Below are positions 11,220-58,820 of a stretch of 64,000 nucleotides of DNA, piece by piece. Position 1 is the stretch's first letter, and each line of letters starts with the position of its first letter. The stretch is taken from the sequence record PV611675.1. The stretch is one strand, 5' to 3'. This DNA is from Acinetobacter phage vB_AbaM_14/CRR8. The notes under the pieces are model-generated. The model was given only the letters and a program-made list of their open reading frames with translations. It was not told the origin of the DNA and searched no databases. A program made the position numbers and the translations under genes.

Positions 11220-11248
11220 TTGTAAAATCAAAAAGATGCTGGTATAAT
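11220..11248 (+). promoter_or_regulatory. sigma70-like promoter TTGTAA-N17-TATAAT with the -10 inside the dyad GATGCtggtataatgctgGCATC
   Basis: Read directly from the sequence. Confidence 0.45.
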
Positions 11249-11275
11249 GCTGGCATCTAATTTATTGGAGGTAAT

Positions 11276-11632
11276 ATGTATGGTAATTTAATTTTAGAAA
11301 AATTTAAATCTAATTCTGAAGATGAAGTCATTCGATTAAATGGTTTTAGATTTTTGTCTTGTGAAGGGACTGAATATTCTCACTTCTTTGGGAATATCTG
11401 GTTGTATGAAGTAAATTTCCAACATCACAGTAAGGAAACCATCAAAGGCCAAGGAGAGGTTCATAACTTCAAATTGACTATTAAACAAGCTCATATAGAG
11501 AAGTCTAGTATCATCTCTCATGAGGCTTTGAACATAGTAGGTGAAGTAGGTTTGATTAATACAATTAAACGTATGTGTGCCGAGATTAGTTCACAACGAA
11601 TTGATGAAATCCTTGGAGGTGATAATGTCTGA
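11276..11632 (+). CDS. hypothetical protein
   Basis: 118 aa. RBS is ggaggtaat-ATG. No recognisable motif. Confidence 0.4.
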   Translation: MYGNLILEKFKSNSEDEVIRLNGFRFLSCEGTEYSHFFGNIWLYEVNFQHHSKETIKGQGEVHNFKLTIKQAHIEKSSIISHEALNIVGEVGLINTIKRMCAEISSQRIDEILGGDNV

Positions 11633-13688
11633 AGAGCGTAAGTATAGATTTTTTGCTGCCGATTTGGAGGCAACAGGTCTATTGTGGGACATGGTTAAAC
11701 AAGGGGATGAGAAGAAATTACATAACTTCTGTGCTATTGAGATCAAGGACCATAAGTTTCAAAATATTGAGATGTTTCACCCTCATGATAAGAAGGGGAG
11801 AGATGAACTTCAAAAATTTATTGAACATCCAGATCATATCTTTCTGATTCACAATGCTTATACATATGATGTTCATGCACTGGAATTATTTGGTTTTGAT
11901 ACATCTAAAATGAAGGTGATTGATACATTGCCATTGTCTTGGTATCTCCATCATGATCGTGATCGTCATGGTCTTGAATGGTGGGGTGAAGAGTTTGGAG
12001 TACCTAAACCTAAGATCGACAACTGGGAAGATTTAACTCAAGAAGAGTATGACCATCGTGTTATCGAAGACTGTAAGATTCAGCGACTCCTGTGGATGAA
12101 GTTGTGTACAGAATTTGGTGAGATGTATAAGATTAAGACTCAGAAGGATGTATATGAACACTTTGCATTCAAATACATTCAGTTTAAATCTAAACAACTT
12201 TCTGAACAGATGAAGAATAAGTGGAAGTTCAATGTTGAGGAAGGTCAGAAATTATTTGATGAGCTTGAAGCTGAGATTGCAGAGCGTACAGAGAAGTTAA
12301 AATCTGTAATGCCTAAAGTTCCAAAGTATGCTAAACGTAAACCTCCAGCTAAACCGTTTAAAGCAAATGGTGAATTATCTGCTACTGGTGAGAAGTGGAA
12401 GAAACTTTGTGAGGAACATGGTTATGAGTTTGGTACTTATAAAGGTGAGATTTTAGAGCTTACTAAGTATGAAGAACCAAACCCAGCATCTTCAACTCAA
12501 GTGAAAGCTTGGTTAACTAGTTTAGGCTGGGAGCCAATGACATTTGAGTATAAGCGTGAAGCTGATGGTAAGACTCGTGCTATTCCTCAAGTTAACAAGA
12601 AGAACTCAGGTGGATTAGTTTGTGAATCTGTTTCGATGTTGGCTGAGGAAGTTGAGGAAGTATCAGCTCTGGAAGGTCTAGGTATCGTAAAGCACCGTTT
12701 TGCTATGGTTAAGGGTTGGTTGGAGAATCACGAAGATGGATTCTTAATCGCACAAGCTGGTGGGTTTACGAATACGTTACGATTGAAGCATAGACAACTT
12801 GTGAATATGCCTTCAGGTCGTGTACCATACGGAATGCGTTTACGTGGGTTGCTTGAAGCTCGTGAAGGTTGTATATTGACAGGGGCCGACTTAAGTTCTC
12901 TTGAGAACCGCTGGAAGTTCCATCATCAATATCCACTTGATCCTGATTATGTAGAAGCACAGATGTCGGATGACTTTGACCCTCACTTGGCACTAGCGGA
13001 GATGGCAGGTCTATTAACGACAGATGATGTAAACTTCTATAAGTTGTTTGAGAGTGGCTACACCATCCCTGATGAGTGTTACACTGATGAACTGAAGAGA
13101 CGAATTAAGAAAGCTGAGGAAGATGAGGAGTGGAAACACTCTGAGATCAAGCGCATTGCTAAAATTCGTGGTATTGGTAAGAATGGTAACTATGCACTAC
13201 AATATGGTTCTGGTGTTGAAACATTAGCCCGTACTGCTAAGATTACCAAGAAACAAGCAACCAAGTTGAAAGAAGGTTATGATAAGCTTAACTGGACTAT
13301 CCCTGTTATTGCCAAGGCACAACGGGTTAAAGATTTTAAACATGGACGATTCTTGTATAACCGTGAGAATAAAATCTGGTATCCATTAAAAGCTGAGAAG
13401 GATAGATTCTCTACCTTGATTCAGGGAAGTGGTTCGTATACACTAGACTTATGGATCATGAAGTTCTTCCAAATTCGTAAGAAGGCTATTGCCTCTGGTC
13501 GGATTAAGTTTGCTAATTTATTAGGGACTTTCCACGATGAGTTAATCTTGGAGCATTTGGAGGAGGATGCAGAAGAAGTTAAGAAGATGTTAAGTGAGGC
13601 GATCGACCTTGTTAATAAATCTTTGAAGCTTTCTGTAGACTTGACATGTGACATTAAACAGGGTAAAACATACGCTGAAATTCACTAA
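11625..13688 (+). CDS. DNA polymerase, family A, with N-terminal 3'-5' exonuclease domain
   Basis: Exo I motif FFAADLEATGL. Motif A ILTGADLSSLENR. Motif B RIAKIRGIGKNGNYALQYGSG. Start chosen at the ATG at 11625 with RBS ggaggtgata. The ORF track extends it to 11577. Confidence 0.85.
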   Translation: MSEERKYRFFAADLEATGLLWDMVKQGDEKKLHNFCAIEIKDHKFQNIEMFHPHDKKGRDELQKFIEHPDHIFLIHNAYTYDVHALELFGFDTSKMKVIDTLPLSWYLHHDRDRHGLEWWGEEFGVPKPKIDNWEDLTQEEYDHRVIEDCKIQRLLWMKLCTEFGEMYKIKTQKDVYEHFAFKYIQFKSKQLSEQMKNKWKFNVEEGQKLFDELEAEIAERTEKLKSVMPKVPKYAKRKPPAKPFKANGELSATGEKWKKLCEEHGYEFGTYKGEILELTKYEEPNPASSTQVKAWLTSLGWEPMTFEYKREADGKTRAIPQVNKKNSGGLVCESVSMLAEEVEEVSALEGLGIVKHRFAMVKGWLENHEDGFLIAQAGGFTNTLRLKHRQLVNMPSGRVPYGMRLRGLLEAREGCILTGADLSSLENRWKFHHQYPLDPDYVEAQMSDDFDPHLALAEMAGLLTTDDVNFYKLFESGYTIPDECYTDELKRRIKKAEEDEEWKHSEIKRIAKIRGIGKNGNYALQYGSGVETLARTAKITKKQATKLKEGYDKLNWTIPVIAKAQRVKDFKHGRFLYNRENKIWYPLKAEKDRFSTLIQGSGSYTLDLWIMKFFQIRKKAIASGRIKFANLLGTFHDELILEHLEEDAEEVKKMLSEAIDLVNKSLKLSVDLTCDIKQGKTYAEIH

Positions 13689-13700
13689 AGGTTAATATTT

Positions 13701-13892
13701 ATGAAAAATTTACAATTACTTGTTGACATTGCAGAAAGTTCTGGTAATATGGATGCCATTGAAGATGATGTAGGATTTAAATTTCCAGAATCCACATCTC
13801 TACCAAAGCTTGAGGTTATGTCCCTTGAGAAAAGGTTCTTAGAACATTGGAGTGATACATATTCTCCAGTTCATTTAAGATATGAATTGTAA
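13701..13892 (+). CDS. small hypothetical protein (possibly shorter, starting at 13749)
   Basis: 63 aa ORF. It overlaps a promoter-like element. Confidence 0.25.
   Translation: MKNLQLLVDIAESSGNMDAIEDDVGFKFPESTSLPKLEVMSLEKRFLEHWSDTYSPVHLRYEL
13724..13750 (+). promoter_or_regulatory. sigma70-like promoter acttGTTGACA-N15-TAATAT
   Basis: Lies inside the 5' part of ORF 13701..13892, so the real coding start there may be the ATG at 13749. Confidence 0.35.
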
Positions 13893-13908
13893 TTAAATAG
13901 GTGGTTCT

Positions 13909-14112
13909 ATGTTGTATTCGTTAGTATTAGTAGTATTTCTATCAAACGGTTCAGAAGATAGAACCACTTTAGCAAAAAATTATCAAGATTACTCTTGCAT
14001 TGATTCAAGAGATGTTGTAAGATCACAACTTGATTATTACAACAATCTCGAATCTAAAGGTGATGTTGAGTTTGTTGATGTTGAGTGTGAAGCTCAAAAA
14101 GATTTTATTTAG
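13909..14112 (+). CDS. small hypothetical protein
   Basis: 67 aa. RBS is taggtggttct-ATG. Hydrophobic N-terminus. Confidence 0.3.
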   Translation: MLYSLVLVVFLSNGSEDRTTLAKNYQDYSCIDSRDVVRSQLDYYNNLESKGDVEFVDVECEAQKDFI

Positions 14113-14131
14113 TAGTTCCTTAGAGGAGAAA

Positions 14132-15340
14132 TTTATGACAGCTTTTAAAATGCGTAAGGGTACAGGTAATGGCAACGGTGGTAACGGACCTAAAGTAGAC
14201 TATGCAGCTATTAATGCTCAGGTTGATGAAGGTTCACACGGTGCTCGTATTGTACACTTAATCGACTTAGGGGACCATCAAGATTCTGTTAAGTTGGGTG
14301 ATAAGGGTTACACAGGATTCCTTAGCGAAGAGGATGCTGAGTTATTCATTGAACAGATGAAAGAAAAGCATGGTGAAAAACATTCTGCATTCAAAAATGG
14401 TGATCCAGAGATTGAGGAAGCGGATGAAGCGGATTTTGATGAGTCTAAGACAAAAACACTTAAACTTACAGGTAAAGGTGACAAAGCTCGTTGGATTGAA
14501 ACAGACACTGATCCAGAGTATGTAGTAAACATCAATGAGTACGGTGGCTTTAAGAAAGATGGTACACCTCTTTTATATCAAGAGATTGCTCTTGTAGCTG
14601 ACTGTACAGAGATGGAAATTGATTATGGTGAAGATATTGGTGTAAAACCTTATCGTATCCTGTTGAACAAAACTTGGATGGGTGATGTTACTGGTTTCCA
14701 ACTTAAGAAAGTTCCACCAGCTAAAAAAGATGGTGTATGGACAATTAAAGGTAATACCAAGTTAGCTGAGGTAATTACAGCTTGTGGTAAGAAAGAGCTT
14801 CTTGATGTTGATTTGGAAGATGCAGATTTTTCTGAAATTCTTGGTGAAGCATTCAATATCGCAATTGAGAAGAATGGTGACAATGACCAGTATGTAAATA
14901 TCGGTAAAGCCATCCCTCTCAAGAAGAAGAAGGGTGTTCCAGAAGAAGTAGCTGAGCTTTGGGATGAACCATTAGTAATCACATTTGAGAATGCAACAGC
15001 TGATTTGCTTGAACAAGCACACGTTCGTGGAGACATTATCAAGAAGATTAAGTCTGCTACAAACTATAAAGGTTCTGCAATGGAAGAGGCTGTTGAAGAG
15101 TATGAAGCTCGTAACAAAGCAAAATACAAAGCTCAAGCTGAATCACAAGAATCTGATTTGGACGATGAAGGTGATGATGAGGATGAGGATGAAAAGCCAC
15201 AACGTAAGGTTACTAAAGAGACTAAGTCTAAGTCAACAAAAGCAAAGACTAAAACTAAGAAGGAACCTGAGCCTGAACCTGAATCAGATGATGATAATGA
15301 CGATGATGGTGACGACGATGAAAACGATGATTGGGAATAA
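14132..15340 (+). CDS. putative ssDNA-binding/replication accessory protein with a long acidic C-terminal tail
   Basis: Start is the ATG at 14132 after ggagaaattt. The C-terminal ~60 aa are poly-D/E (DDDNDDDGDDDENDDWE), as in the tails of T7 gp2.5-type SSBs. It lies between the polymerase and FEN genes. Confidence 0.3.
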   Translation, partial: FMTAFKMRKGTGNGNGGNGPKVDYAAINAQVDEGSHGARIVHLIDLGDHQDSVKLGDKGYTGFLSEEDAELFIEQMKEKHGEKHSAFKNGDPEIEEADEADFDESKTKTLKLTGKGDKARWIETDTDPEYVVNINEYGGFKKDGTPLLYQEIALVADCTEMEIDYGEDIGVKPYRILLNKTWMGDVTGFQLKKVPPAKKDGVWTIKGNTKLAEVITACGKKELLDVDLEDADFSEILGEAFNIAIEKNGDNDQYVNIGKAIPLKKKKGVPEEVAELWDEPLVITFENATADLLEQAHVRGDIIKKIKSATNYKGSAMEEAVEEYEARNKAKYKAQAESQESDLDDEGDDEDEDEKPQRKVTKETKSKSTKAKTKTKKEPEPEPESDDDNDDDGDDDENDDWE

Positions 15341-19992: not shown

Positions 19993-20020
19993 TTGAAATG
20001 GTGAGTTATTATGATATAAT
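19993..20020 (+). promoter_or_regulatory. sigma70-like promoter TTGAAA-N16-TATAAT with the -10 inside the 7 bp inverted repeat GGTGAGTtattatgatataatACTCACC
   Basis: Read directly from the sequence. Confidence 0.45.
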
Positions 20021-20048
20021 ACTCACCTAAGTTAATTTGGAGGATGTT

Positions 20049-24089: not shown

Positions 24090-24119
24090 TTGACAAGCTA
24101 AAAAGTAATCATTAATATA
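24090..24119 (+). promoter_or_regulatory. sigma70-like promoter agTTGTTGACA-N18-TAATAT
   Basis: Read directly from the sequence. It abuts the RNR terminator. Confidence 0.45.
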
Positions 24120-24150
24120 GGGACATGTCTTAGGGCGTGTCCCTTTTTTA
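24120..24150 (+). terminator. intrinsic terminator GGGACATG-tcttagggc-GTGTCCC + T6
   Basis: Read directly from the sequence. Confidence 0.6.
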
Positions 24151-26871: not shown

Positions 26872-27098
26872 TGCCAAAGTTTAAGATTTGTGTTACACGT
26901 ATTCATGTTGATGAGTTAATCGTGGAGGCAGCTGATTTAGAACATGCACAAGAAATTGGAAGTAATTACGAAGATCAGATGGAATCTACACGAGATAACC
27001 ATATTGAGTCTGAATGGCCTGTGACTCCTCTTCCAGATGATGCTAAGGTAAATTACAAACCTACAGCAAAATATCTTGCAATGAAGAATTGGAAGTAA
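26871..27098 (+). CDS. hypothetical protein
   Basis: 75 aa, acidic. Confidence 0.35.
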   Translation: MPKFKICVTRIHVDELIVEAADLEHAQEIGSNYEDQMESTRDNHIESEWPVTPLPDDAKVNYKPTAKYLAMKNWK

Positions 27099-27104
27099 TA
27101 TAAT

Positions 27105-27133
27105 GGGATCATCGAAAGGTGGTCCCTTTTTAT
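27105..27133 (+). terminator. intrinsic terminator GGGATCatcgaaaggtGGTCCC + T5
   Basis: One of three terminators sharing the loop aTCGAAAGGt. Confidence 0.6.
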
Positions 27134-28922: not shown

Positions 28923-29126
28923 ATGAGTGAATGTAAGGATGTATGCAACTTCAGTTACACAAACAACAAGAATATCGTTGTGGAAGTAATTTTAAGGACA
29001 GATGGTGAAGTTTATTGGGTCATGGAAGGTCCACGATATGTTGGGGAATTTGAAGACCTTGAAACTATCGAGAACTATTTCTTCCAGAACTATAACATTG
29101 CTGTAGACTTATCTAAGTTTAAGTAG
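28923..29126 (+). CDS. hypothetical protein
   Basis: 67 aa. Confidence 0.35.
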   Translation: MSECKDVCNFSYTNNKNIVVEVILRTDGEVYWVMEGPRYVGEFEDLETIENYFFQNYNIAVDLSKFK

Positions 29127-29134
29127 TACAATAA

Positions 29135-29160
29135 GGGTCATCGAAAGGTGGCCCTTTTTA
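29135..29160 (+). terminator. intrinsic terminator GGGTCatcgaaaggtgGCCC + T5
   Basis: Same loop family as the terminators at 27105 and 52031. Confidence 0.6.
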
Positions 29161-29173
29161 TTTGGAGGTTGAA

Positions 29174-29440
29174 ATGGTTAAGAGAAAAACAGAAGTTAGA
29201 GCAAGTGTATCTATTTATAAAGATTATGGTGATAGAATCTCTTGTGAGTTTATTGTATCTGTCGTAGAAGATGGCAAGAATGTCCCTGATCGTGGTGGTG
29301 CTATGGAGATGCTTTACTTTAAAGATACAAAAGCAATGGATTTCATTAATAATGATGCTATGTATGGAGTCACTTTAATTCCATTCAGTAAGGTGGAAGA
29401 GTTCCGTAACTGGTTAATTGCAAACAATTTTGAGGGTTAA
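29174..29440 (+). CDS. hypothetical protein
   Basis: 88 aa. RBS ggaggttgaa-ATG. Confidence 0.35.
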   Translation: MVKRKTEVRASVSIYKDYGDRISCEFIVSVVEDGKNVPDRGGAMEMLYFKDTKAMDFINNDAMYGVTLIPFSKVEEFRNWLIANNFEG

Positions 29441-32192: not shown

Positions 32193-32207
32193 ATCCTAAA
32201 ATAGTTG

Positions 32208-32236
32208 TTGACCCATTATGGATTAATCTCTATAAT
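32208..32236 (+). promoter_or_regulatory. sigma70-like promoter agTTGTTGACC-N17-TATAATGG with the -10 inside the dyad GATTAAtctctataatgggTTAATC
   Basis: Read directly from the sequence. Confidence 0.5.
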
Positions 32237-32262
32237 GGGTTAATCATTTAGGAGGTAATACT

Positions 32263-35835: not shown

Positions 35836-35863
35836 TTGACACAATATAGGGCCATGTATTATC
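35836..35863 (+). promoter_or_regulatory. sigma70-like promoter TTGACA-N16-TATTAT with the -10 inside the dyad GCCATGtattatCATGGC
   Basis: Read directly from the sequence. Confidence 0.45.
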
Positions 35864-35892
35864 ATGGCTTTATTCATTTAGAGGAGAAAAAC

Positions 35893-36534: not shown

Positions 36535-37073
36535 TGAAATTCTACCACAAGAAAACTGTAGGTGATATTAACAAAAGAATCTCGGAGTTAAAGCAAGAGA
36601 TTCGTGAAGCTGAGGAAAAAGTTCAGCTTGTTATTAAAGATCACCTTAGAGCTGGATGTAAGACATTTCCAGAGGTTGTAGAACTCTCTAAAGAACTTGG
36701 CTGTAGTTTTGAATATGTAGTCGATGGACTTGGGCCAAAAAGAAAGTATTCACTATGGTCTAACTTAATGTGGGTGGAGGTCAAGTCTGGTCATGATGGT
36801 TTGATACTTAAATTAGAAAATGTAGGGATTTTGGAAAAGACTTACTATTACTGTAATAATTATGGTGGGCAAGATTTATGTATCGGTGATGAGGAGGCTA
36901 TGAAATCCTTTGAGTGTGAGGATGGAATTTGGGCTTGTCCGATCAAGGGTGAGGAGATTAGTAAAGAAGAATTTGATGAAAATCTTTACCCAATGTTCTC
37001 TACTACTGATAAATATCATAACATCTGGAAGAAATTATCTGAAGGCATTGACAACTTACTGGTGTTCCAATAA
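36534..37073 (+). CDS. hypothetical protein
   Basis: 179 aa. Confidence 0.4.
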   Translation: MKFYHKKTVGDINKRISELKQEIREAEEKVQLVIKDHLRAGCKTFPEVVELSKELGCSFEYVVDGLGPKRKYSLWSNLMWVEVKSGHDGLILKLENVGILEKTYYYCNNYGGQDLCIGDEEAMKSFECEDGIWACPIKGEEISKEEFDENLYPMFSTTDKYHNIWKKLSEGIDNLLVFQ

Positions 37074-37079
37074 AATCGA

Positions 37080-37107
37080 GGGTGTGGCTTAGGCTGCACC
37101 CTTTTTA
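37080..37107 (+). terminator. intrinsic terminator GGGTGTGGcttaggCTGCACCC + T5
   Basis: Loop contains CTTAGG, as in the terminators at 24120, 47538 and 54068. Confidence 0.6.
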
Positions 37108-37322: not shown

Positions 37323-37588
37323 GCGCTAAAGATTATATTGAAAATGTACTGGCATATCCTGATGACAGTAATGTGAAGTCTGACCTATTGTACTTTAAAG
37401 AATTTCAAGACTTCTTGTTTGAGTTATACTACTCAGAGCATTTTGACTGCCTTATAAAGTTCGTTGGTGGAACAACCTTTATGGAGCAAGATGGTGGATG
37501 GACATTCTATTCATCTAGTGAATCAGCTATGCGTACATTAAGATGGAAGGGTAGACTGATAAGTGTTAAAAAGTATTTGACAGAGTAA
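37319..37588 (+). CDS. hypothetical protein
   Basis: 89 aa. Confidence 0.35.
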   Translation: MSAKDYIENVLAYPDDSNVKSDLLYFKEFQDFLFELYYSEHFDCLIKFVGGTTFMEQDGGWTFYSSSESAMRTLRWKGRLISVKKYLTE

Positions 37589-37623
37589 TACTTTAATTAT
37601 ATTATACCTTTAAATTAACTGAG

Positions 37624-37893
37624 GTGAAGTGTATGTTGGTAGTTAGTCGAAGAACTGCAATATTTATTAATACAGTCGCTAATTGGGCTTTTATTAATTA
37701 CAATTATGATCGTAATGCACTGAAGGATTTTCAGGGTAGGCTTAGAGATAGAGTTAACCTATCAAAATTAGTTAGTGATGTATCTTTAGGTGATGACTGT
37801 GATTGTCTTGTTTCGATAGATGATGCAGACACACCTTTAGTTGAAAGTATTCTTAAAAGTTTCAAGGAGCGTAATCGTGGAAGTAATTCGTAA
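37624..37893 (+). CDS. hypothetical protein
   Basis: 89 aa. Confidence 0.3.
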   Translation: MKCMLVVSRRTAIFINTVANWAFINYNYDRNALKDFQGRLRDRVNLSKLVSDVSLGDDCDCLVSIDDADTPLVESILKSFKERNRGSNS

Positions 37894-38785
37894 TAAGGTG
37901 GTAGAACAATATACTTGGGCTGGTCAGAAAATTGAATTGACTATTAAGAAATATAAGCCGATTGTTTTCCATAAAAATTTGTGGGACCAATACCCTTCAG
38001 CTATCAAAGCGCGTGGTGCTGTATATCATGGTGATGAACAAGTGGTATATCCTATGGACAAGTGTTTCAACTACCTTGAGAATGGTTGTGGAAAAGATAT
38101 CGAGGGTGATCACTATGTTATGTGGTATCGTAAAGTAAATGGCTTTATGGTGAACCTTACATACCATGAAGCTCTTGGTTGGATCATTTCAACTACAGGT
38201 GATGCTATCATCTTTGGCAATGTGACAGAGAATAAATACATCAATATGGCTTTGCAGTATATTGAAAAGTATGATGGCTTTGGTTTGTATGAACAGTTAA
38301 AGGGTGACTATTGCTTCTTTGATGACGATCAATTTACGGTGACGTTTGAAGTTGTCCATGAGAATGATCCACACATCGTAACTGAAGTGACTGGACTATA
38401 CCCATTATGTGTGCAAAAGAATGGTGTAACAATACCATTAAATGTCTCTCTTCAGGAGGATGGTAGTGGTGAGTTTGATGATTTGAAAGAAGCTTTGAAG
38501 GTATGTAGACATGAAGGCTTTATGGTCTACAATGGTGCTGGTGAGCTTCTATTTAAGATGAAGTCTCCATATTACCTTGCTAAGAAATGGGTACAGCGTG
38601 GAGGAGCTAAGCGAGTTTGGAGTAATGACTATAAAGAACGTTTGGATGAAGAGTATTACCCAATCATTGATTACTTACGATCACATCATGACAAGGAAGA
38701 GTGGGATAAGATGACAGAAGAGGCAAAGTCTATTGCATTCTTGGATGCTTACTACTTTGTAAATAACTTTAGTAGGGAGGGATAA
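37877..38785 (+). CDS. RNA/DNA-ligase-like covalent nucleotidyltransferase (putative RNA ligase)
   Basis: Motif I YRKVNGFM (KxNG variant, as in tRNA ligases). Motif III FFDDDQFTVTFEVV. Motif IV HEGFMVYNG. Motif V LLFKMKSPYY. Start taken at the GTG at 37877, 7 nt after aaggag. Confidence 0.45.
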   Translation: MEVIRNKVVEQYTWAGQKIELTIKKYKPIVFHKNLWDQYPSAIKARGAVYHGDEQVVYPMDKCFNYLENGCGKDIEGDHYVMWYRKVNGFMVNLTYHEALGWIISTTGDAIIFGNVTENKYINMALQYIEKYDGFGLYEQLKGDYCFFDDDQFTVTFEVVHENDPHIVTEVTGLYPLCVQKNGVTIPLNVSLQEDGSGEFDDLKEALKVCRHEGFMVYNGAGELLFKMKSPYYLAKKWVQRGGAKRVWSNDYKERLDEEYYPIIDYLRSHHDKEEWDKMTEEAKSIAFLDAYYFVNNFSREG

Positions 38786-39342
38786 TGGGTGTAGTAACAC
38801 ACGGCATGAGTGGGACTCCATTGTACCAATGTTGGAAGAATATGAAGGCTAGGTGTTATAGAAAGTCATCTACTCACTTCCATAGGTATGGTGGTAGGGG
38901 TATTAAGGTCTGTGATGAGTGGAAATTTTCATTCATCACATTTATGGATTGGGCATATAAAAGTGGCTACTCTGAGGATTTAACTATTGATAGGGTAGAT
39001 GTTGATAAGGACTATACACCTGATAATTGTAGATGGATTAGACCTGATGAAAATGTATCAAGAGCTAACTTTTACCATAAGGAGTTAGGAACTGGATGTC
39101 AATCGGATACATCTAAGATGAAAATGAGGGAAACCATTGTTGATTTACAAGGCATGAAGGTTGAACTTTATTTTGGTTTGAAATTGATTGGTGTGTATGA
39201 TTCAATAGGTCTAGCTTCTGATTATGTTGCTGAAGCCCTTGGAAGGAAGAAAAAGAATGTCTACTCTCAGATGAAACAACAAATGAAAGGTAAGGTTAAA
39301 ACTACTGGTGGCTATACTGTGGAGGAATTTTTAGATGAGTAA
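38785..39342 (+). CDS. HNH_3-type homing-endonuclease-like protein
   Basis: CYRKSSTHFHRYGGRGIKVCDEW...TIDRVDVDKDYTPDNCRWI matches the HNH_3 / AP2-associated endonuclease pattern. It is inserted between the ligase-like and Pnk-like genes. Confidence 0.4.
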   Translation: MGVVTHGMSGTPLYQCWKNMKARCYRKSSTHFHRYGGRGIKVCDEWKFSFITFMDWAYKSGYSEDLTIDRVDVDKDYTPDNCRWIRPDENVSRANFYHKELGTGCQSDTSKMKMRETIVDLQGMKVELYFGLKLIGVYDSIGLASDYVAEALGRKKKNVYSQMKQQMKGKVKTTGGYTVEEFLDE

Positions 39343-41012: not shown

Positions 41013-41245
41013 TGCCTATATGTATTGGAGGACCATTCCATGATAAACATGCTAATTGTGGTGATTACATTTATACTATAATGGGTACTAGGAAGCTTGT
41101 AGAATATCGGCTAAGAGATTACTGTTATGACGATGGTTCTATTAAAAAGATTCAACTTTACCAGCATGTGTCCCTTTCAGATGAATGTATCATTCAATTC
41201 CTAAATGAAAAATTTAATTTAAACCCTGTTGAGAAAAAGTCTTGA
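41012..41245 (+). CDS. hypothetical Cys/His-rich protein
   Basis: 77 aa. CIGGPFHDKHANCGDY. Confidence 0.35.
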   Translation: MPICIGGPFHDKHANCGDYIYTIMGTRKLVEYRLRDYCYDDGSIKKIQLYQHVSLSDECIIQFLNEKFNLNPVEKKS

Positions 41246-41269
41246 CAGGGTTTTTCTTTGCCTGTAATA
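41241..41269 (+). promoter_or_regulatory. sigma70-like promoter TTGACA-N17-TAATAT overlapping a 7 bp hairpin (AACCCTG...CAGGGTT + T-run)
   Basis: Read directly from the sequence. Confidence 0.45.
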
Positions 41270-41303
41270 TTCACTTCACTTCATAGACAACTAGGAGCTG
41301 GAA

Positions 41304-43690: not shown

Positions 43691-44658
43691 TGTCCATTTT
43701 ACGAGTTAAAAACTTCCTTGAACTGCATGTAGTTGGCAAGGGGCAGATTAAAGTAGATGTGGTGGAATTTGGGGACGGCACTAAAAGTGTCCGTATCCCT
43801 ACTATTAAGTGTTACGACCGAGAGACCACTTTCCGTATTGAGTTATTTCAGCGTAGTATGGATGACATCATGCTTGTTGCACAAATTGTAGATATCATTC
43901 GTCGTAATACACGTACAATTGTGAACATCATCTTAAGCTTAGAGTCACCAATGTATATGCGTTATGATCGTGTGATGAATGATAAGAAGGATGATGCCTT
44001 TGCACTAAAACAGTTTGTGAAAATGATTCTGGCGACAGGTGTCAATCATGTACAGTTGACAGACCCTCACAGTGAAGTGGCTGAGGAGTTGTTATTCCTA
44101 CATGGCTCTGGTCGAAACTTTGTAAGTGTTACACGTCAAGAAGATTGTGTGTATGAGGCTCTACGAACATTCACAGAAGGACATAAAAACCTAGGGCATT
44201 ATGATATTGTACTACCTGATGCTGGAGCAGCTAAGAAAGTTCTTGGTTATGAAACTTTCCAATGTATGAAAGCTCGTGACCCTAACACTGGTAAGTTGTC
44301 TAAAGCTGGGTTTGATATTGATCCTAATGTATTAACTAAGTTGTTATTGAGTAAGAAAGATAGAATCATTATTGTTGACGACATCTGCGAGAACGGTGGA
44401 ACCTTCTTAGGATGCCATAAAATGCTCAGAGAGCGTGGTGTTATAAAACCTATGGATTTGTACATCACACATGGCGTATTCCCTAATGTGCAAGCAATGA
44501 GTAAGTTCTATGGGGTGTTTGAGAATATCTACATATACAATGGAACAAATGCAAAGTATCTTGACCTTGTATCCCATACAGGAGCTAAGATTCATATGGT
44601 AAATGCTTTTGTGGGAGCTGATGAATTAGTTTTCGAAGATGACCTATTTAAGTCTTGA
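43690..44658 (+). CDS. Prs-like phosphoribosyl-pyrophosphokinase-fold protein; candidate ADP-ribose pyrophosphokinase (Adps) of a NARP1-type NAD+ reconstitution pathway
   Basis: 322 aa. PRPP-synthetase-type binding loop RIIIVDDICENGGTFLG. The overall length matches Prs. Its start overlaps the Rnl2 stop (TAATG). A NAMPT-like gene lies 285 nt downstream. Confidence 0.6.
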   Translation: MSILRVKNFLELHVVGKGQIKVDVVEFGDGTKSVRIPTIKCYDRETTFRIELFQRSMDDIMLVAQIVDIIRRNTRTIVNIILSLESPMYMRYDRVMNDKKDDAFALKQFVKMILATGVNHVQLTDPHSEVAEELLFLHGSGRNFVSVTRQEDCVYEALRTFTEGHKNLGHYDIVLPDAGAAKKVLGYETFQCMKARDPNTGKLSKAGFDIDPNVLTKLLLSKKDRIIIVDDICENGGTFLGCHKMLRERGVIKPMDLYITHGVFPNVQAMSKFYGVFENIYIYNGTNAKYLDLVSHTGAKIHMVNAFVGADELVFEDDLFKS

Positions 44659-44684
44659 CATCTATACAATAGTGGGGTTATAAT
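44655..44684 (+). promoter_or_regulatory. sigma70-like promoter TTGACA-N18-TATAAT with the -10 in the clamp GGGGttataatggCCCC
   Basis: Read directly from the sequence. Confidence 0.45.
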
Positions 44685-44711
44685 GGCCCCACAAACTTTT
44701 AGAGGTGTGCT

Positions 44712-48864: not shown

Positions 48865-49353
48865 ATGTACATATTTCCAAGTCAAGTATTCTTTTACCCG
48901 AACAATTTATTCTTAGATTCAATAAATGAACTTGATGGTCATATAATTGAGATGGGCTGTGGTGTGGGTCATACTCTGGCTAGAATGAAAGAGTATGGTG
49001 GGGCGGTAGATAACTGCAATATGTTTAACTCACGTGGGTTTGATATTGTAGCTAGAACTGAATGTGAGGCACCTACCCAAGTGGCTTATGGTTATATGTT
49101 TGACGCTTTAGAATTTAAGTTCTACACTAAGCTTATGAACGTATTGGTATGCCGTCCTGATCATGGAGGTTGGGTCGGAACTTTGTTGGACAAGTTCTTG
49201 AGTGGTGAGAAAACTTGTAAGCGATTCATCTATGTAGGATTAGAACGTAACTTGACTATAGATTTTGATCCTATACAATTAGATGCATTATCTCAAGTCA
49301 TAGAGAATGTTGGTGATGACGGGGAGAATATGTACATTTGGGAGATTTCCTGA
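48865..49353 (+). CDS. hypothetical protein with a SAM-methyltransferase-like glycine-rich motif
   Basis: IIEMGCGVGHTL resembles MTase motif I. At 162 aa it is short for a complete methyltransferase. Confidence 0.25.
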   Translation: MYIFPSQVFFYPNNLFLDSINELDGHIIEMGCGVGHTLARMKEYGGAVDNCNMFNSRGFDIVARTECEAPTQVAYGYMFDALEFKFYTKLMNVLVCRPDHGGWVGTLLDKFLSGEKTCKRFIYVGLERNLTIDFDPIQLDALSQVIENVGDDGENMYIWEIS

Positions 49354-49559
49354 TGGATACTATGATTGAATATTTCTTTCACGGTTTACTGGTGGCTGTA
49401 GTATTATACTACGCCATCAAGATGACATTGTTCATGATCCAAGCTCAAATAGATTCTTATAAATTTCAGAAGAATCTGAAGGAGACTGAGCGAAAACAGG
49501 CAGAGTATGAAAACTCTATTGAATGTAAACTAATAAACAAGTATCTCTCGGAGAAATAA
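49338..49559 (+). CDS. small membrane protein
   Basis: 73 aa. TM segment FFHGLLVAVVLYYAIKMTLFMI. Confidence 0.3.
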   Translation: MGDFLMDTMIEYFFHGLLVAVVLYYAIKMTLFMIQAQIDSYKFQKNLKETERKQAEYENSIECKLINKYLSEK

Positions 49560-54090: not shown

Positions 54091-54124
54091 TAGATATTCC
54101 CAGATATATTCAGATATTCCAGCA

Positions 54125-54165
54125 AAATCAGAAAAAATTTGAAAAGTTTTTGAAAGTTTTTGAAA
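54125..54165. repeat. A-tract repeats (TTTTGAAAG x2, GAAAAAATTTGAAAAG) upstream of a promoter (UP-element-like)
   Basis: gaaaaaatttgaaaagtttttgaaagtttttgaaatttcc. Confidence 0.4.
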
Positions 54166-54170
54166 TTTCC

Positions 54171-54200
54171 TTGACATGTGTTGTGAGTTGAACTAAAATG
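54171..54200 (+). promoter_or_regulatory. sigma70-like promoter TTGACA-N18-TAAAAT
   Basis: Read directly from the sequence. It drives a non-coding transcript. Confidence 0.5.
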
Positions 54201-54840: not shown

Positions 54841-55440
54841 ATGGAACAAATTACATTAGATTTATTTAGCTTTGAAGAACTCTCTAATGAAGCTCAACAA
54901 GTGGCAATTGAAGCAGTCCGTAACAGTGAATATTATTTATCTCATGATTGGTATGATTCTACAAAAGAAGATTTTCACCAAATCTTAAACATTATCGGCT
55001 TTTATGATGTTAAGAGTCAATTTTCTGGTTTTAATTCTCAAGGTGATGGGGCGAGTTTTTCAGCTAACTACCGTTATCAAACAGAATGTTTAACTAATGT
55101 TAAAATCCATGCACCAAATGATAATGAGTTGCATGATATTGTAAGCGGTATCGTTAAGATCATGAGACGTTATTTCTATCGTCTTGAGTGTGAAATTTAC
55201 ACACAAGGTTATTACTGCCATTCTAACACGATGAATTTTAATTGGTCGTATAATGATAGATATGATTGCAATATTAGTGATGAAGACGAAAGTATCTTGA
55301 ATCAATTGTTCCGAGACTTGGCAGATTGGTATTATGAAAAGCTTAATAAAGAATATGATTACCTTATGAGTGATGAAGGTATCACGGGGCATATTATAGC
55401 AAATGAGTGCAAATATACAGTTGATGGGAAGGAGTTTTGA
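54841..55440 (+). CDS. hypothetical protein (first gene of the AT-rich early-like block)
   Basis: 199 aa. RBS aaaggtgatgag-ATG. Putative promoter CTTGCA-N17-TACTAT lies upstream. Confidence 0.4.
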   Translation: MEQITLDLFSFEELSNEAQQVAIEAVRNSEYYLSHDWYDSTKEDFHQILNIIGFYDVKSQFSGFNSQGDGASFSANYRYQTECLTNVKIHAPNDNELHDIVSGIVKIMRRYFYRLECEIYTQGYYCHSNTMNFNWSYNDRYDCNISDEDESILNQLFRDLADWYYEKLNKEYDYLMSDEGITGHIIANECKYTVDGKEF

Positions 55441-55442
55441 TT

Positions 55443-55583
55443 ATGAAAACTTACTTAATAACATTTGATGGCGGTTATGCATTTATGAATGCAAAAAATA
55501 AAAAGACTGCTAAAGAAAAGTTTATTGAAAAGTGTGTTCGTGAAAGTAATTTCACTCCTGAAAATGTTGTGGTAGTTTATTAA
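55443..55583 (+). CDS. small hypothetical protein (46 aa)
   Basis: MKTYLITFDGGYAFMNAKNKK... Confidence 0.3.
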   Translation: MKTYLITFDGGYAFMNAKNKKTAKEKFIEKCVRESNFTPENVVVVY

Positions 55584-55594
55584 AGGTAAATGAA

Positions 55595-55873
55595 ATGAAA
55601 ATGTCAACTCAAGAGATTATTGATTTCCTATCTGTAAATCAAAGTGCATGGAAAAAGGTAGCACTAAAAAATATTGAAGATATTAGTGCGGTGAATGATG
55701 AGCTAGAAGAAAAAGATATCTATACATTGAAACATGATTGTACATTCTATGATGCTTTGAATGACCACAATACACCTTTTGAAGATGTGTTAAATGATTT
55801 CTTTATGTTACATTTAGACATCGAACAAAATAGCAATGATGTGATGATTTGGTTGCAGCGTATTTATGCTTAA
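55595..55873 (+). CDS. hypothetical acidic protein
   Basis: 92 aa. Confidence 0.35.
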   Translation: MKMSTQEIIDFLSVNQSAWKKVALKNIEDISAVNDELEEKDIYTLKHDCTFYDALNDHNTPFEDVLNDFFMLHLDIEQNSNDVMIWLQRIYA

Positions 55874-55879
55874 TGGTGG

Positions 55880-56215
55880 ATGAAAATGAGTAAACAGCAA
55901 TGTATATTTTTTGATGCCTTTTTTAACTTCAAAAAGAAACGTAAAGTTGAAGAGTACACATTAACTATTACTGTGTGGTACACTCTTAAAGATCAAATAA
56001 GACGTGGTAAATATTGCATCGTCATACATGGCGACAACCCTAGTCGGATGAGTGTAGACGGGGTAAATAAGTTTAAAGACTTTATCGACGGCAGAGAGAT
56101 TACAAAAGGTATTGCTATGTCTAGTGTAAGCTATGACGTGACAAAGTATAGAGGCCATTTGGTGGCAAGTCATGTCAAAGCACAAAACTTGATTGTAAAT
56201 GAAAAAGGTAATTGA
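55880..56215 (+). CDS. hypothetical protein
   Basis: 111 aa. Confidence 0.35.
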   Translation: MKMSKQQCIFFDAFFNFKKKRKVEEYTLTITVWYTLKDQIRRGKYCIVIHGDNPSRMSVDGVNKFKDFIDGREITKGIAMSSVSYDVTKYRGHLVASHVKAQNLIVNEKGN

Positions 56216-56591
56216 TATGAGTAACTTAAATATTGCAGCACATCCTATAGATGGGGAAAACACATTAATCGTAAACGGTTATGAAGTTAAAATCTCGTAT
56301 GATGATGAATTAGATGCTTTGTTGTATCGTGTGTATTACAATAATGAGCATGTAGAGTCATTTTCATCTATTCAGCAAGCTTTTGGTTACATCGAAAGTA
56401 TTGATATAACTTTGTTGCAATGCCCACATTGTAAAAGTTTATTTAGCATGGATGAGGATGGATACCAAATGAATGACATTTTCGAGATAGTGTTTTGTTC
56501 TTTAGAGTGTTCGCATAAACATAATCTTGAACATAAAGATGAGCTATTATCGCAAGGTTATACGGAAAATGATTTAAGTGAATTGGCATGA
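56199..56591 (+). CDS. hypothetical protein with C-terminal zinc-ribbon-like CPHC...CSLEC
   Basis: 130 aa. The likely start is the ATG at 56217. Confidence 0.35.
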   Translation: MKKVIDMSNLNIAAHPIDGENTLIVNGYEVKISYDDELDALLYRVYYNNEHVESFSSIQQAFGYIESIDITLLQCPHCKSLFSMDEDGYQMNDIFEIVFCSLECSHKHNLEHKDELLSQGYTENDLSELA

Positions 56592-56785
56592 TTATAGTTT
56601 GTACGTTCAAATCAACAAATGACATTGTTACTCATTCAGTAGCAATATTTAAAGGTGGTAAGATTGTTAAACAAATCCTGAATATTAAAGAGGATGGATT
56701 AAGAACAGTTTTAGCAGCATACAACACACATAAAGATATTTATTATCGAGATGTAAAATCAAAAGCGAGTTTAAAATGGCGTTAG
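56588..56785 (+). CDS. small hypothetical protein
   Basis: 65 aa. Confidence 0.3.
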   Translation: MIIVCTFKSTNDIVTHSVAIFKGGKIVKQILNIKEDGLRTVLAAYNTHKDIYYRDVKSKASLKWR

Positions 56786-56955
56786 ATGTAGAGATTTACA
56801 GTAAATACGAACATGATACGGGCCTTATATTATATTCCGACTTCAAGCAAGGTCAGTTTATACAAGGTTACATGGGCGATATTACTTATATCATCGTACT
56901 GTGGGATGTTAACGGCATACCTAAAGCCCATTATTCAAAAGAATTTAATATTTAA
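56776..56955 (+). CDS. small hypothetical protein (59 aa)
   Basis: MALDVEIYSKYEHDTGLILYSDF... Confidence 0.3.
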   Translation: MALDVEIYSKYEHDTGLILYSDFKQGQFIQGYMGDITYIIVLWDVNGIPKAHYSKEFNI

Positions 56956-56968
56956 TTTAAATTAATTG

Positions 56969-56997
56969 TTGACAAGGATTTTAAATAGGGCCATAAT
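56969..56997 (+). promoter_or_regulatory. near-consensus promoter atTGTTGACAagg-N-gggCCATAATaccc
   Basis: TTGACA-N17-CATAAT. The unit is repeated almost verbatim at 60132, 60939 and 63215. Confidence 0.55.
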
Positions 56998-57041
56998 ACC
57001 CACATAGACAAACAAACAGCTTAAACAAAAGGTAAAGCGAA

Positions 57042-57524
57042 ATGGCTATGCAACGTATCAGTAAAAAGAAAGAACTAAACGAACAAGAAATCGAAATGAA
57101 GGAATTCTTTCGTTTAGGTAGATTTGAAATGACTGCAACATATATTGCAGAAGTTAAGATGAATGCAGAAGACCGTTATCCAATGGATAAGTTTGCCATT
57201 GTATTTAAAAATGGGTACGGTGATGTAGAAGCATTTGATTTCTATCAAGGTGTAGGCCATAGAAATTTGAATACAAAAGGTTTGATTGGTCAACCATATA
57301 AAACTATTTTTGCACCTAGTGAAGCCGATGTATTATATTGCTTGGTTCTTGATGCTTCATTAGCAAATCTATCTTATGAAGATTACTGTAATGAATTTGG
57401 CTATGACAGTGATAACTTAAAGCACAAGAAGCTTCATATGCTAATGAAAGAAAACACCAAAAAACTTGAAAAGATTTTTAAACTCAATCTAGTTAAGATT
57501 GAACAAATATTGCAAGATTATTGA
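57042..57524 (+). CDS. hypothetical protein
   Basis: 160 aa. Confidence 0.4.
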   Translation: MAMQRISKKKELNEQEIEMKEFFRLGRFEMTATYIAEVKMNAEDRYPMDKFAIVFKNGYGDVEAFDFYQGVGHRNLNTKGLIGQPYKTIFAPSEADVLYCLVLDASLANLSYEDYCNEFGYDSDNLKHKKLHMLMKENTKKLEKIFKLNLVKIEQILQDY

Positions 57525-57536
57525 TAAATAGGTTTA

Positions 57537-57580
57537 CTTTTAGCATGAATCGATTATAATGGGTTCATGCAATAAAGCAA
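57537..57580 (+). promoter_or_regulatory. conserved element ttttaGCATGAAtcgatTATAATgggTTCATGCaataaagcaa (-10 box in the loop of a 7 bp inverted repeat)
   Basis: Second copy at 58776..58820. Lies 28 nt upstream of the 57608 start codon. Confidence 0.4.
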
Positions 57581-57607
57581 ACAACCATACACAAAAGGAT
57601 TCATTTA

Positions 57608-58351
57608 ATGAATACATTTAACATCGAACTAGTAAAGAAAATTGAAAGTGACCTTGCAACGTCAAAGGTTGTTGTAATGGATGCATTGACAGCTATGCAA
57701 AAAGTGCCGTCATACTTGTCGGAACATGTAGCAGAAGCAGACTACACAATGAGACAAGCTTTTCTAGGAAATAATAGCAGTATTGCTAGTGTGTTAAGTG
57801 GTTTAACTCATGCAGCGTGGTCAGAATTTTTTGCTCACCACTTAGTACATCATTTAATAATTGACCGTGAAAGTGTTGCTACACATAAGTATGTGTTTGC
57901 AGACAGCTACAAGCGTTTGTTATATAGTGGTGTAAAAGAGTTGGTAGAATTCAACCAATCAAATGCAGAGGAATTTTTTAATGAGTTCTTAAATATTGAC
58001 CGTGCGAAATGTTCTAAGTGGTTGAAAGATTTGCTAGAACGTACTGGAAAAGATTGGAAAAATTCTAGTAAAGAATTTAAATCTAAAATGACTTTAAGAG
58101 GATTGGATTCATACGGAACTGTAAGCCGTGAACTGGGGCGCACATTATTTGCAGTGTGTAAACATTTGGGCCTTGATTTTACTTTCGACAAGTATTACAC
58201 TGAATTACGTAACCACAGTAAAATTAATGGTGACAAATTTAAGGTTAACGATGATTTGGATATTACATTCGAATATCATCAAAATGGCAATACAACTTTA
58301 CGTATTGATAAAGATTTGGTAAAATTGTTAAACGATTTACTTGAGGGTTAA
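57608..58351 (+). CDS. hypothetical protein
   Basis: 247 aa. Confidence 0.4.
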   Translation: MNTFNIELVKKIESDLATSKVVVMDALTAMQKVPSYLSEHVAEADYTMRQAFLGNNSSIASVLSGLTHAAWSEFFAHHLVHHLIIDRESVATHKYVFADSYKRLLYSGVKELVEFNQSNAEEFFNEFLNIDRAKCSKWLKDLLERTGKDWKNSSKEFKSKMTLRGLDSYGTVSRELGRTLFAVCKHLGLDFTFDKYYTELRNHSKINGDKFKVNDDLDITFEYHQNGNTTLRIDKDLVKLLNDLLEG

Positions 58352-58355
58352 CATC

Positions 58356-58532
58356 ATGATGTATGCATTAGTTTTGATAGTATTTGGTAATAACGTTTAT
58401 ACACCTATCGACAAGGTGGAGATTAAACACAGCCTTACTTATTCGCAATGTCAGAAACAAATGAAAGACTTAAATAAGAACATTCAAGGCGCACAAGTTC
58501 AATTCACTTGTGAATCATATCGATTACGTTAA
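58356..58532 (+). CDS. small protein with N-terminal TM/signal-like segment
   Basis: MMYALVLIVFGNNVY... RBS gagggttaacatc. Confidence 0.3.
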   Translation: MMYALVLIVFGNNVYTPIDKVEIKHSLTYSQCQKQMKDLNKNIQGAQVQFTCESYRLR

Positions 58533-58542
58533 TAGGTGTAAC

Positions 58543-58764
58543 ATGAAATTTGATTTGGATGACTTGGCTAAAAAGACGGATGATACAAGTAACGGTAACA
58601 CGTATCGAATTGTAGAAATCAATTTAGCTCACCAATGTTATTTGGTTGAATGCGAAAACTACTATGGCCCTGAAGATTTAGGTGACGGCATCATGTTATA
58701 TGGTAGTGGTCAACAAGTGTGGGTAGCTGCTTATACATTTGATTGGATAACTCAAAAACTTTAA
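58543..58764 (+). CDS. small hypothetical protein
   Basis: 73 aa. RBS aggtgtaac-ATG. Confidence 0.3.
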   Translation: MKFDLDDLAKKTDDTSNGNTYRIVEINLAHQCYLVECENYYGPEDLGDGIMLYGSGQQVWVAAYTFDWITQKL

Positions 58765-58775
58765 ATAAAGCTTGC

Positions 58776-58820
58776 TTTTAGCATAACTATCTATATAATG
58801 GTGGTTATGCAATAAAGCAA
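58776..58820 (+). promoter_or_regulatory. second copy of the conserved element ttttaGCATAACtatctaTATAATggtgGTTATGCaataaagcaa
   Basis: Same architecture as 57537..57580. Lies 20 nt upstream of the 58840 ORF. Confidence 0.4.

Follow-up and report, generated by a model that had tools for sequence, protein, structure and literature searches.

Acinetobacter phage vB_AbaM_14/CRR8 (PV611675.1) carries, within the 64-kb window analysed here, a group of intergenic sigma70-like promoters, about a third of those of host type, whose -10 hexamers lie inside stem-loops. The inverted repeats around these hexamers are non-random, the stems are conserved and covary, their G·U pairs make them specific to the sense strand, and their geometry relative to the promoter hexamers is fixed. 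The sites are probably composite promoter/stem-loop cassettes of the promoter-early stem-loop (PeSL) type, in which the sigma70-type promoter of a downstream gene would be superimposed on a stem-loop selected as sense-strand RNA. An initial annotation of this DNA had proposed that -10 boxes are systematically nested in short inverted repeats. All seven strings that it singled out are present, each located to within 1 nt (11235, 20000, 32221, 35851, 44674, 57543 and 58781), and the boxes do lie systematically inside dyads, which act as structures (hairpins) and not as a shared sequence.

The window belongs to a Saclayvirus-type Acinetobacter myophage with 95-98% identity to Aci01-1, Aci02-2, Liucustia and TAC1 (genus Saclayvirus) and 72-84% identity to the farther relatives UOL-KIMZ-24, D22, P1, phi1_092033, KissB and phiAbaA1. 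It comprises the end of the structural module, a replication and nucleotide-metabolism module and a region of small early open reading frames (ORFs), with genes on the + strand almost throughout. Relatives for comparison were drawn from GenBank phage records; IMG/VR contains three relatives only. The hairpin promoters are named by their -10 position as 8676, 11243, 20015, 32231, 35857, 44679, 57555 and 58794.

Eighteen intergenic sigma70-like promoters were picked by -35/-10 hexamer criteria alone. Each received as its score the length of the longest perfect inverted repeat around the -10, the loop being limited to 20 nt. Perfect dyads of at least 6 bp surround the -10 in 8 of the 18 promoters, and dyads of at least 7 bp in 3 of them. 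In the background, dyads of 6 bp or more occur at 3.3% of all positions in the window, 6.3% of intergenic positions and 3.2% of 557 non-promoter TATAAT-like hexamers. Shuffling of the flanks leaves a mean of 0.47 dyads among 18 promoters, and a count of 8 is not reached in any of 5000 shuffles, so the proposed excess of dyads at -10 boxes holds clearly against shuffled controls. Several arms are longer than first described, for example AGATGC/GCATCT and GTGGGG/CCCCAC.

Perfect-dyad scoring by itself was dropped, as it missed stems extended by G·U pairs, mis-assigned the 32221 site and wrongly took in an AT-only dyad at 37600. This site and a 5-bp dyad at 60962 show neither stability nor conservation and are attributed to chance. 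RNA folding combined with orthologue comparison replaced the dyad score. In the folding test, 48 nt around each -10 were folded as sense-strand RNA and compared with dinucleotide shuffles. Eight promoters have minimum free energies (MFEs) of -13.1 to -19.9 kcal/mol with z-scores of -2.8 to -5.6, and each falls within the lowest 0.1-2.3% of genome windows by MFE; the other 12 promoters are unstructured, with z between -1.3 and +1.35. Folding as RNA lengthens the dyads through G·U pairs to stems of 9-16 bp, with TATAAT at the apex or in the 3' arm. Intergenic promoters of low MFE (lowest 2.5% of windows) are likewise enriched in three complete relatives (binomial P = 1.5e-4, 0.035 and 8e-4). Rfam gave no match at the gathering threshold anywhere in the window.

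Conservation of the stems was assessed from per-site alignments; automated pair counting on MAFFT columns was abandoned, since register shifts and stem turnover inflated the class of broken pairs. Covariation is found at the 20015 and 58794 sites. At 20015, the stem GGUGAG/CUCACC becomes GGUAGG/CCUACC in D22, P1, KissB and phiAbaA1, which amounts to two compensatory double changes, and Liucustia carries a G·U intermediate. The 58794 stem shows three double changes in total, C-G to U-A and A-U to G-C in UOL-KIMZ-24 and an A-U to U-A flip in D22. In a joint alignment of 57555 and 58794, 121 of 121 cells are paired, whereas slid controls are only 36-46% paired. The covariation score is 0.23; shuffles give 0.10, and none of 500 attains the observed score. 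The arms of 57555 are invariant in eight relatives while its loop varies.

At 32231, all 78 cells are paired across six distinct orthologues, the sole changes in the stem being exchanges between AU and GU, and four of the six loop columns vary. The dyad reported at 32221 is present, but the conserved structure is a different, 16-bp helix at 32207-32244; the supposed left arm GATTAA is the loop of that helix and for this reason decays in relatives. The arms of 11243 are invariant in five relatives and both flanks vary; the hairpin at 11234-11258 was independently flagged as terminator-like by a pattern scan. The 35857 stem is kept in seven relatives, with one loop base differing. Elsewhere the stem has been exchanged: phiAbaA1 has in place of 35857 the unrelated stem GAUGUGAG-uuaauauu-CUCACAUC around TAATAT, and 44679 is replaced by the unrelated stem AAGGGUAUA-guaa-UAUACCCUU in D22 and by GUGGGGGCAUA-guaa-UAUGCUCUCAC, with G·U pairs and a AAUUUUUAU tail, in phiAbaA1. 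The covariation points to selection on an RNA structure and not on a DNA dyad.

The strand on which these elements fold best is consistent with this. Of 37 orthologue sequences, 32 fold more stably as sense than as antisense RNA, and the other five all belong to the chance site 60962. Individual values are -13.5 against -6.0 at 11243 and -19.9 against -12.5 kcal/mol at 32231, and the mean sense-minus-antisense difference is -5.8 kcal/mol at hairpin promoters compared with -2.7 in background stable windows. The bias at the hairpin promoters resembles that of canonical terminators in the window, for which the difference is -6 to -12 kcal/mol. The + strand has a strong skew of G over C across the whole window (G 14108, C 9377); because of it, sense RNA is about 1.5 kcal/mol more stable than antisense everywhere, and claims of strand-specific structure therefore need a control for skew. 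With DNA parameters, the hairpins reach only -3.5 to -8.7 kcal/mol per strand, which is not enough to extrude a cruciform from an imperfect palindrome whose loop is 3-8 nt long.

The arms make use of variable parts of the promoter, namely the spacer (sometimes together with the -35) and the discriminator/+1 region, which places the -10 at the apex or in the 3' arm. With the start predicted 7 nt past the -10, the +1 of each of the seven confident Type A sites comes to lie within the 3' arm, 1-5 nt short of its end (at 35857, the predicted start is 35869-35872). The promoter's own RNA would therefore lack the hairpin, and only read-through RNA could fold it. This geometry disagrees with the suggestion that the dyads place a stable 5' stem-loop on the promoter's transcripts, as the 5' arm would never be transcribed from that promoter. 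Hexamer scores are 10-12 of 12 at 11243, 20015, 32231, 35857, 44679 and 57555 and 9 of 12 at 58794. An upstream stop codon lies 15-40 nt 5' of the hairpin at six of eight sites (at 35857 the nearest is 35731), and the predicted 5' untranslated region is 20-24 nt long at six sites.

The cassettes at 57537 and 58775, the starts of the 57555 and 58794 elements, are the only paralogous ones, with exactly two copies per genome. The initial annotation had set these two sites apart as a promoter class of their own without a canonical -35. They do form a two-copy paralogous cassette in every relative; their architecture is otherwise that of the remaining sites, and weak -35 boxes, TTTACT and TTGCTT, are present at 16-bp spacing. 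The flanks they were noted to share correspond to the base of the hairpin (GCAU/AUGC) and the outer helix (CUUU/AAAG). A MotA-box reading of the CTTTTAGCAT motif at both paralogues was rejected: the 58794 copy, TGCTTTTA, has an extra T relative to the T4 box, 57555 has TTTACTTTTA, and no MotA or AsiA gene is annotated. The outer helix accounts for the motif. The flank 'aataaagcaa' of the two sites overlaps a C/A-rich leader type described below.

The eighth site, 8676, is a probable addition. Its 48-nt MFE is -14.1 kcal/mol (z = -4.1), its fold is ambiguous between two alternatives of about equal energy, and in a 64-nt fold the hairpin moves onto the -35 and spacer. Only the ACUAUU/AAUAGU core is conserved, because a homology breakpoint lies at 8685.

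In the proposed mechanism, transcripts of the upstream gene would carry both arms, and the hairpin would fold on them. Its most likely effect is to attenuate or terminate read-through, to give the upstream message a protected 3' end, or both, and the downstream gene would be insulated against upstream transcription. RNA polymerase at the embedded promoter would start within the 3' arm, 1-5 nt short of its end; in a sister class treated below, the start would lie 6-7 nt inside the 5' arm of a canonical terminator. With a start inside the hairpin, the transcript of the embedded promoter would therefore lack it and escape attenuation. We infer that the hairpin functions as an RNA-level insulator with restart by an embedded, immune promoter.

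Several observations weigh against this interpretation. Promoter activity and the +1 positions are predicted from sigma70 geometry, and an attenuator or stabiliser function is in turn putative. The sense bias is partly compositional, as G exceeds C on the coding strand and the background difference is already -1.5 to -2.7 kcal/mol. At 32231, pairing largely uses the -35 and -10 themselves, which are conserved anyway. The 8676 promoter heads an operon after a divergent region, where read-through could come only from a tandem promoter at ~8511-8539. Finally, there is no U-tract at 20015, 32231, 57555 and 58794, which makes efficient intrinsic termination at these sites unlikely, and the 44679 element of the window is not a canonical GC-rich hairpin with a U-tract. 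A U-rich tail does follow the hairpin at 11243, at 35857 (approximately), in some 44679 orthologues and in an element in the relatives' left arm.

Because only some members carry U-tracts, the main rival holds that the hairpins on read-through RNA are processing or stability elements and not terminators, serving as barriers to 3' exonucleases or RNase E scanning, or as endonuclease sites, and setting the half-lives of the upstream and downstream cistrons. Most Type A hairpins indeed lack a U-tract, textbook terminators (GGG..CCC followed by UUUUUAUU) are already used where termination is wanted, and protective 3' hairpins typically have stabilities in the range found here (-13 to -20 kcal/mol). 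For RNase III, however, a stem of 9-16 bp is short, the sites share no sequence that a specific nuclease might recognise, several family members do have U-tracts, and a PeSL stem-loop alone strongly lowered downstream expression (PMC2839356). A processing or stability role of this kind is rather unlikely. The dyads might instead be DNA operators at which dimeric phage or host repressors occlude the -10, as the initial annotation suggested. Operators that overlap promoters are common, and the symmetry is centred at or near the -10. Against this, the arms differ at every site (AGATGC, GGTGAG, GACCC.., GCCATG, GTGGGG, GCATGAA, GCATAAC), offer no common half-site and are spaced 3 to 16 nt apart; orthologous sites exchange them for unrelated sequences that still pair; the selected pairing includes G·T positions, which are asymmetric in duplex DNA; and the compensatory changes fit base pairing and not half-site recognition. 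An operator function is improbable on these grounds.

Structure in the DNA itself, either a cruciform or a single-strand hairpin in supercoiled or melted DNA that modulates or creates the promoter as in N4 virion RNA polymerase promoters, had also been proposed. In its favour, 11243, 20015 and 44679 have 3-nt loops like N4 early promoters, and DNA hairpins tolerate G·T pairs to some extent. The G·T pairs occur only in the sense strand, however, and the antisense (template) strand folds much worse. The weak per-strand DNA hairpins (-3.5 to -8.7 kcal/mol) would have to offset the melting of a 25-38 bp duplex, and loops of 6-8 nt and bulges disfavour extrusion. Sigma70 hexamers are present at all sites, and no virion or other phage RNA polymerase is annotated in any relative fetched; the largest ORF in the window encodes 979 aa (RNR). 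This reading is very improbable. Translational timing of the T4 lysozyme, soc and gene 49 type, in which the hairpin masks the ribosome-binding site in early read-through RNA and the internal-promoter RNA is translatable, shares the geometry of a promoter inside a hairpin. Here, however, the Shine-Dalgarno sequence lies unpaired 4-14 nt downstream of the 3' arm, and the probability that the region from it to the AUG is unpaired is equal in read-through and promoter-initiated RNAs at six of eight sites. The two exceptions point in opposite directions (0.38 against 0.53 at 32231, 0.72 against 0.57 at 35857), so that timing of this kind is highly improbable. It is scarcely conceivable that the dyads arise by chance from -10 regions that are AT-rich and nearly palindromic. 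TATAAT is nearly self-complementary, and 37600 and 60962 are chance cases, but non-promoter TATAAT-like hexamers stay at background, and chance is rejected alike by shuffling, by the percentiles among genome windows, by conservation and by covariation.

This genome couples promoters to stem-loops as a general design, of which the initial annotation caught one register. The canonical terminators of the genome consist of GGG..CCC arms, a tetraloop and UUUUUAUU. In 4 of 10 such terminators in the window, a promoter-like -10 adjoins the terminator, and the predicted +1 falls at stem position 6-7 (P = 8e-6); these form Type B. The terminator stem at 27105-27126 covaries in phiAbaA1 and KissB. The same design occurs in the left arm of the relatives (the leftward early region), where a full terminator reads AGACCUCAUGCAU-UAAU-AUGUGUGAGGUCU and then UUUUUAUU; its stem has 13 bp, the UAAU loop lies inside TAATAT, and TTGACA precedes TAATAT at 17-bp spacing. 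The features of all classes are collected in Table 1.

Table 1. Promoter/stem-loop cassettes in the 64-kb window (hyphenated numbers between hexamers are spacer lengths in bp).
Class and site	Span (strand)	Promoter hexamers	Predicted +1	Stem-loop or terminator	Context
Type A, 11243	11220..11258 (+)	-35 TTGTAA (11220-11225); -10 TGnTATAAT (11243-11248)	~11255	11234-11258: AGAUGCUGGUA-UAA-UGCUGGCAUCU, 11 bp, 3 G·U; loop = -10 centre; tail AAUUUAUU	Upstream of gene pair ending in DNA polymerase
Type A, 20015	19993..20027 (+)	-35 TTGAAA (19993-19998); -10 TGaTATAAT (20015-20020), in 3' arm	~20027	20000-20027: 7 bp, bulge, 5 bp (AUUAU/AUAAU), 3-nt loop	Upstream of MazG-like and RNR genes
Type A, 32231	32207..32244 (+)	-35 (32208-32213) pairs with discriminator; -10 (32231-32236) pairs with spacer	~32243	16-bp helix GUUGACCCAUUAUGGA/UCUAUAAUGGGUUAAU; loop 32223-32228	Upstream of DNA helicase
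Type A, 35857	35836..35873 (+)	-35 TTGACA (35836-35841); -10 TATCAT (35860-35865, 18-bp spacer) or alternatively TATTAT (35857-35862, 15 bp)		35846-35873: 11 bp, GCCAUG/CAUGGC core; UUUAUUCAUUU tail after and partly within it, terminator-like	
Type A, 44679	44655..44692 (+)	-35 TTGACA (44655-44660); -10 TATAAT (44679-44684)	~44691	44672-44692: GUGGGGUUA-UAA-UGGCCCCAC, 9 bp	Upstream of small ORF and nicotinamide phosphoribosyltransferase gene
Type A, 57555 (paralogue 1)	57532..57582 (+)	-35 TTTACT (57533-57538); -10 TATAAT (57555-57560)	~57567	Inner helix 57543-57570: GCAUGAAUC/GGUUCAUGC, 9 bp; outer helix CUUU/AAAG 57537-57577	
Type A, 58794 (paralogue 2)	58772..58820 (+)	-35 TTGCTT (58772-58777); -10 TATAAT (58794-58799)	~58806	Inner helix 58781-58810: GCAUAACUAUC/GGUGGUUAUGC, 11 bp; outer helix 58772-58778 with 58814-58820	
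Probable extra hairpin promoter, 8676	8654..8695 (+)	-35 TTGACT (8654-8659); -10 TATAAT (8676-8681)			Head of rightward replication module
Type B	24090..24144 (+)	TTGACA-17-TAATAT (24090-24118)	Stem position 7	Adjoining canonical terminator 24119-24144, then UUUUUUAUU	
Type B	27076..27126 (+)	TTGCAA-17-TATAAT (27076-27104)	Stem position 7	Adjoining terminator 27105-27126	
Type B	29104..29156 (+)	TAGACT-17-TACAAT (29104-29132)	Stem position 7	Adjoining terminator 29133-29156	
Type B	37048..37103 (+)	TTGACA-17-TAAAAT (37048-37076)	Stem position 6	Terminator 37078-37103, 1 nt downstream	
Type C	41221..41270 (+)	TTGACA-17-TAATAT		Terminator-like hairpin 41221-41253; 3' arm holds the -35 TTGACA (41242-47)	

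The hairpin promoters also differ from the naked ones in their hexamers. The -10 is TATAAT at 7 of 8 hairpin promoters and at 1 of 13 naked promoters (P = 5e-4), and TTGACA at 17-bp spacing is found at none of the 8 hairpin promoters and at 12 of the 13 naked ones (P = 4e-5), a split to be read with the caveat that a total hexamer score was required at selection. Hairpin promoters thus combine TATAAT with a weak -35 or a spacer other than 17 bp, whereas naked promoters combine a perfect TTGACA at 17 bp with a deviant -10. The genes headed by hairpin promoters include those for the primase-helicase, DNA polymerase, RNR, helicase and NAMPT, and this concentration on replication and nucleotide metabolism suggests a temporal class. 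Under such a scheme, early transcription from -35-dependent promoters would end at the hairpins; the phage would then disable -35 recognition in an AsiA-like manner, leaving transcription to the -35-independent promoters that lie within the hairpins. That the hairpin promoters form a distinct temporal class, with a hairpin-gated early-to-middle switch in a phage without its own polymerase, is a speculative and unlikely extension. A 55-aa zinc-ribbon protein annotated in phage P1 as a 'putative transcription initiation factor' has no homologue in the window. In P1 this protein, with a CxxC...CxxC arrangement, is encoded in the early region at 49324-49491.

Other promoter regions of the window show features of their own. 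A family of early promoters of the form (a/t)TTGTTGACAAGGAT...CATAAT is found at 56969-57041, 60132-60199, 60939-60997 and 63215-63260. Each promoter is followed by a C/A-rich leader, such as AAACAAACAGCTTAAACAAAAGG, that ends in a weak Shine-Dalgarno sequence. The family matches a conserved 'AAGCAAACAACTTAAAAGG' motif reported upstream of eight Acibel004 genes (PMC4128745). At 60132-60147 and 60939-60957, the -35 hexamer lies inside a small palindrome, TTGACAAGGATGTCA(A), whose minus strand was flagged as terminator-like by the scan; the palindrome is weak (~-6 kcal/mol) and has lost one base pair in D22 and P1.

A repeat of ~40 nt, TATAGTACCA..GTCAAGTCATTTATTGTTA, occurs at 8590-8632 and 63141-63182 and reads as a TTGACA-16-TGnTACTAT promoter on the minus strand. 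Each copy seems to head a leftward transcription unit and to face a cluster of rightward promoters. Directly upstream of the -35 of the promoter at 54171-54199 are tandem copies of GTTTTTGAAA (aaaatttgaaaagtttttgaaagtttttgaaatt), at 54120-54170; they are conserved in relatives and could be an array of UP elements or of regulator-binding sites. The 1-kb non-coding region at 62327-63391 has, by eye, several CTATCTAG-like repeats at ~62.7-62.9 kb, of which a strict pattern search finds one exact copy only, at 62731, and duplicated TTGACAGG boxes at 63058-63086. It lies near the genome end and could function as an origin or in packaging or regulation. Small ORFs at 37582-37972, 29170-29428, 38789-39340 and 55867-56586 are variably present among close relatives, with homology breakpoints directly 3' of promoter or terminator cassettes. 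In one example, an inserted 86-aa ORF has promoter 37600 on one side and an RNA ligase gene on the other.

The closest known counterparts of the hairpin promoters are the PeSLs of the T4-type phages RB49/phi1, PST/T4 and nt-1/KVP40 (Arbiol et al. 2010, PMC2839356; Comeau et al. 2014, PMC4122927). These are sigma70 promoters with stem-loops, drawn with G-T pairs and often with G-run and C-run arms, and the stem-loops are commonest between -35 and -10 or overlapping the -10 (PMC2839356). One such stem-loop cut downstream lacZ expression as much as rrnB T1 did (PMC2839356; PMC4122927). As a positive control, the same pipeline was applied to a PeSL-rich region of phage phi1, where it recovered stems of the GGGGGUA-UUAA-UAUACCCCC type around -10 boxes (TAATAT) and placed 6 of 30 promoters in the lowest 2.5% (P = 9e-5).

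The Saclayvirus cassettes resemble PeSLs in fusing promoter and stem-loop within the short gap from the upstream stop codon to the downstream Shine-Dalgarno sequence, in using stems with G-T pairs and G-run/C-run arms, and in their positional subclasses: overlapping the -10, just downstream of it and overlapping the -35, all three of which are found here. The D22 element GGGUAUAguaaUAUACCC is near-identical to GGGGGUAuuaaUAUACCCCC of phi1. They differ in occurring in an unrelated myophage genus (Saclayvirus, Acinetobacter), and most have a sequence of their own and lie in the replication and nucleotide-metabolism module, unlike the repeated PeSL motif that flanks ORFans. Their stems are G·U-reliant and strand-asymmetric, whereas those of phi1 are GC-perfect and symmetric. 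The shuffling role of PeSLs is not demonstrable here either. Homology breakpoints lie within 60 nt of a cassette in 19 of 100 cases against 6.3 expected at random, but they are no commoner at cassettes than at gene starts in general (14/21 against 39/72, P = 0.33).

Intrinsic terminators share with these elements the sense-strand RNA hairpins, G·U pairs, covarying stems and, at 11243, 35857 and the left-arm element, U-rich tails. They differ in that 4 of 7 sites have no U-tract and that, apart from the three 3-nt loops, the loops measure 6-8 nt and hold the -10 box. The T4 e, soc, 49 and I-TevI leaders enclose a late or middle promoter in a hairpin present only in early read-through RNA. There, as predicted here, RNA from the internal promoter lacks the 5' arm, giving two structurally different classes of transcript; the T4 hairpin sequesters the ribosome-binding site, whereas here the stem does not include the Shine-Dalgarno sequence, which at most sites is equally accessible in both classes. 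N4 virion RNA polymerase promoters also have a small hairpin centred near the -10, comparable to the 3-nt loops at three sites, but the N4 hairpin forms in template-strand DNA and is read by a giant virion RNA polymerase, whereas here the template folds poorly and sigma70 hexamers are present. A short RNA upstream of the primase/helicase gene in PAK_P3 was considered as an experimental analogue and set aside, as it combines an ordinary promoter with a separate terminator. In the literature searched, nothing of this kind is described for Saclayviruses.

The composite design is real but introduces no new principle, as it is already known from T4-like phages. Its presence here extends the PeSL design from those phages to unrelated therapeutic Acinetobacter phages, suggesting a general solution to gene insulation in very compact phage genomes. 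The cassettes provide a concrete map of predicted starts, attenuators and terminators for annotating Saclayvirus transcription units, and they are compact promoter-plus-insulator parts that could potentially be reused. They also carry a warning for annotation, namely that a dyad covering a -10 box need not be an operator.

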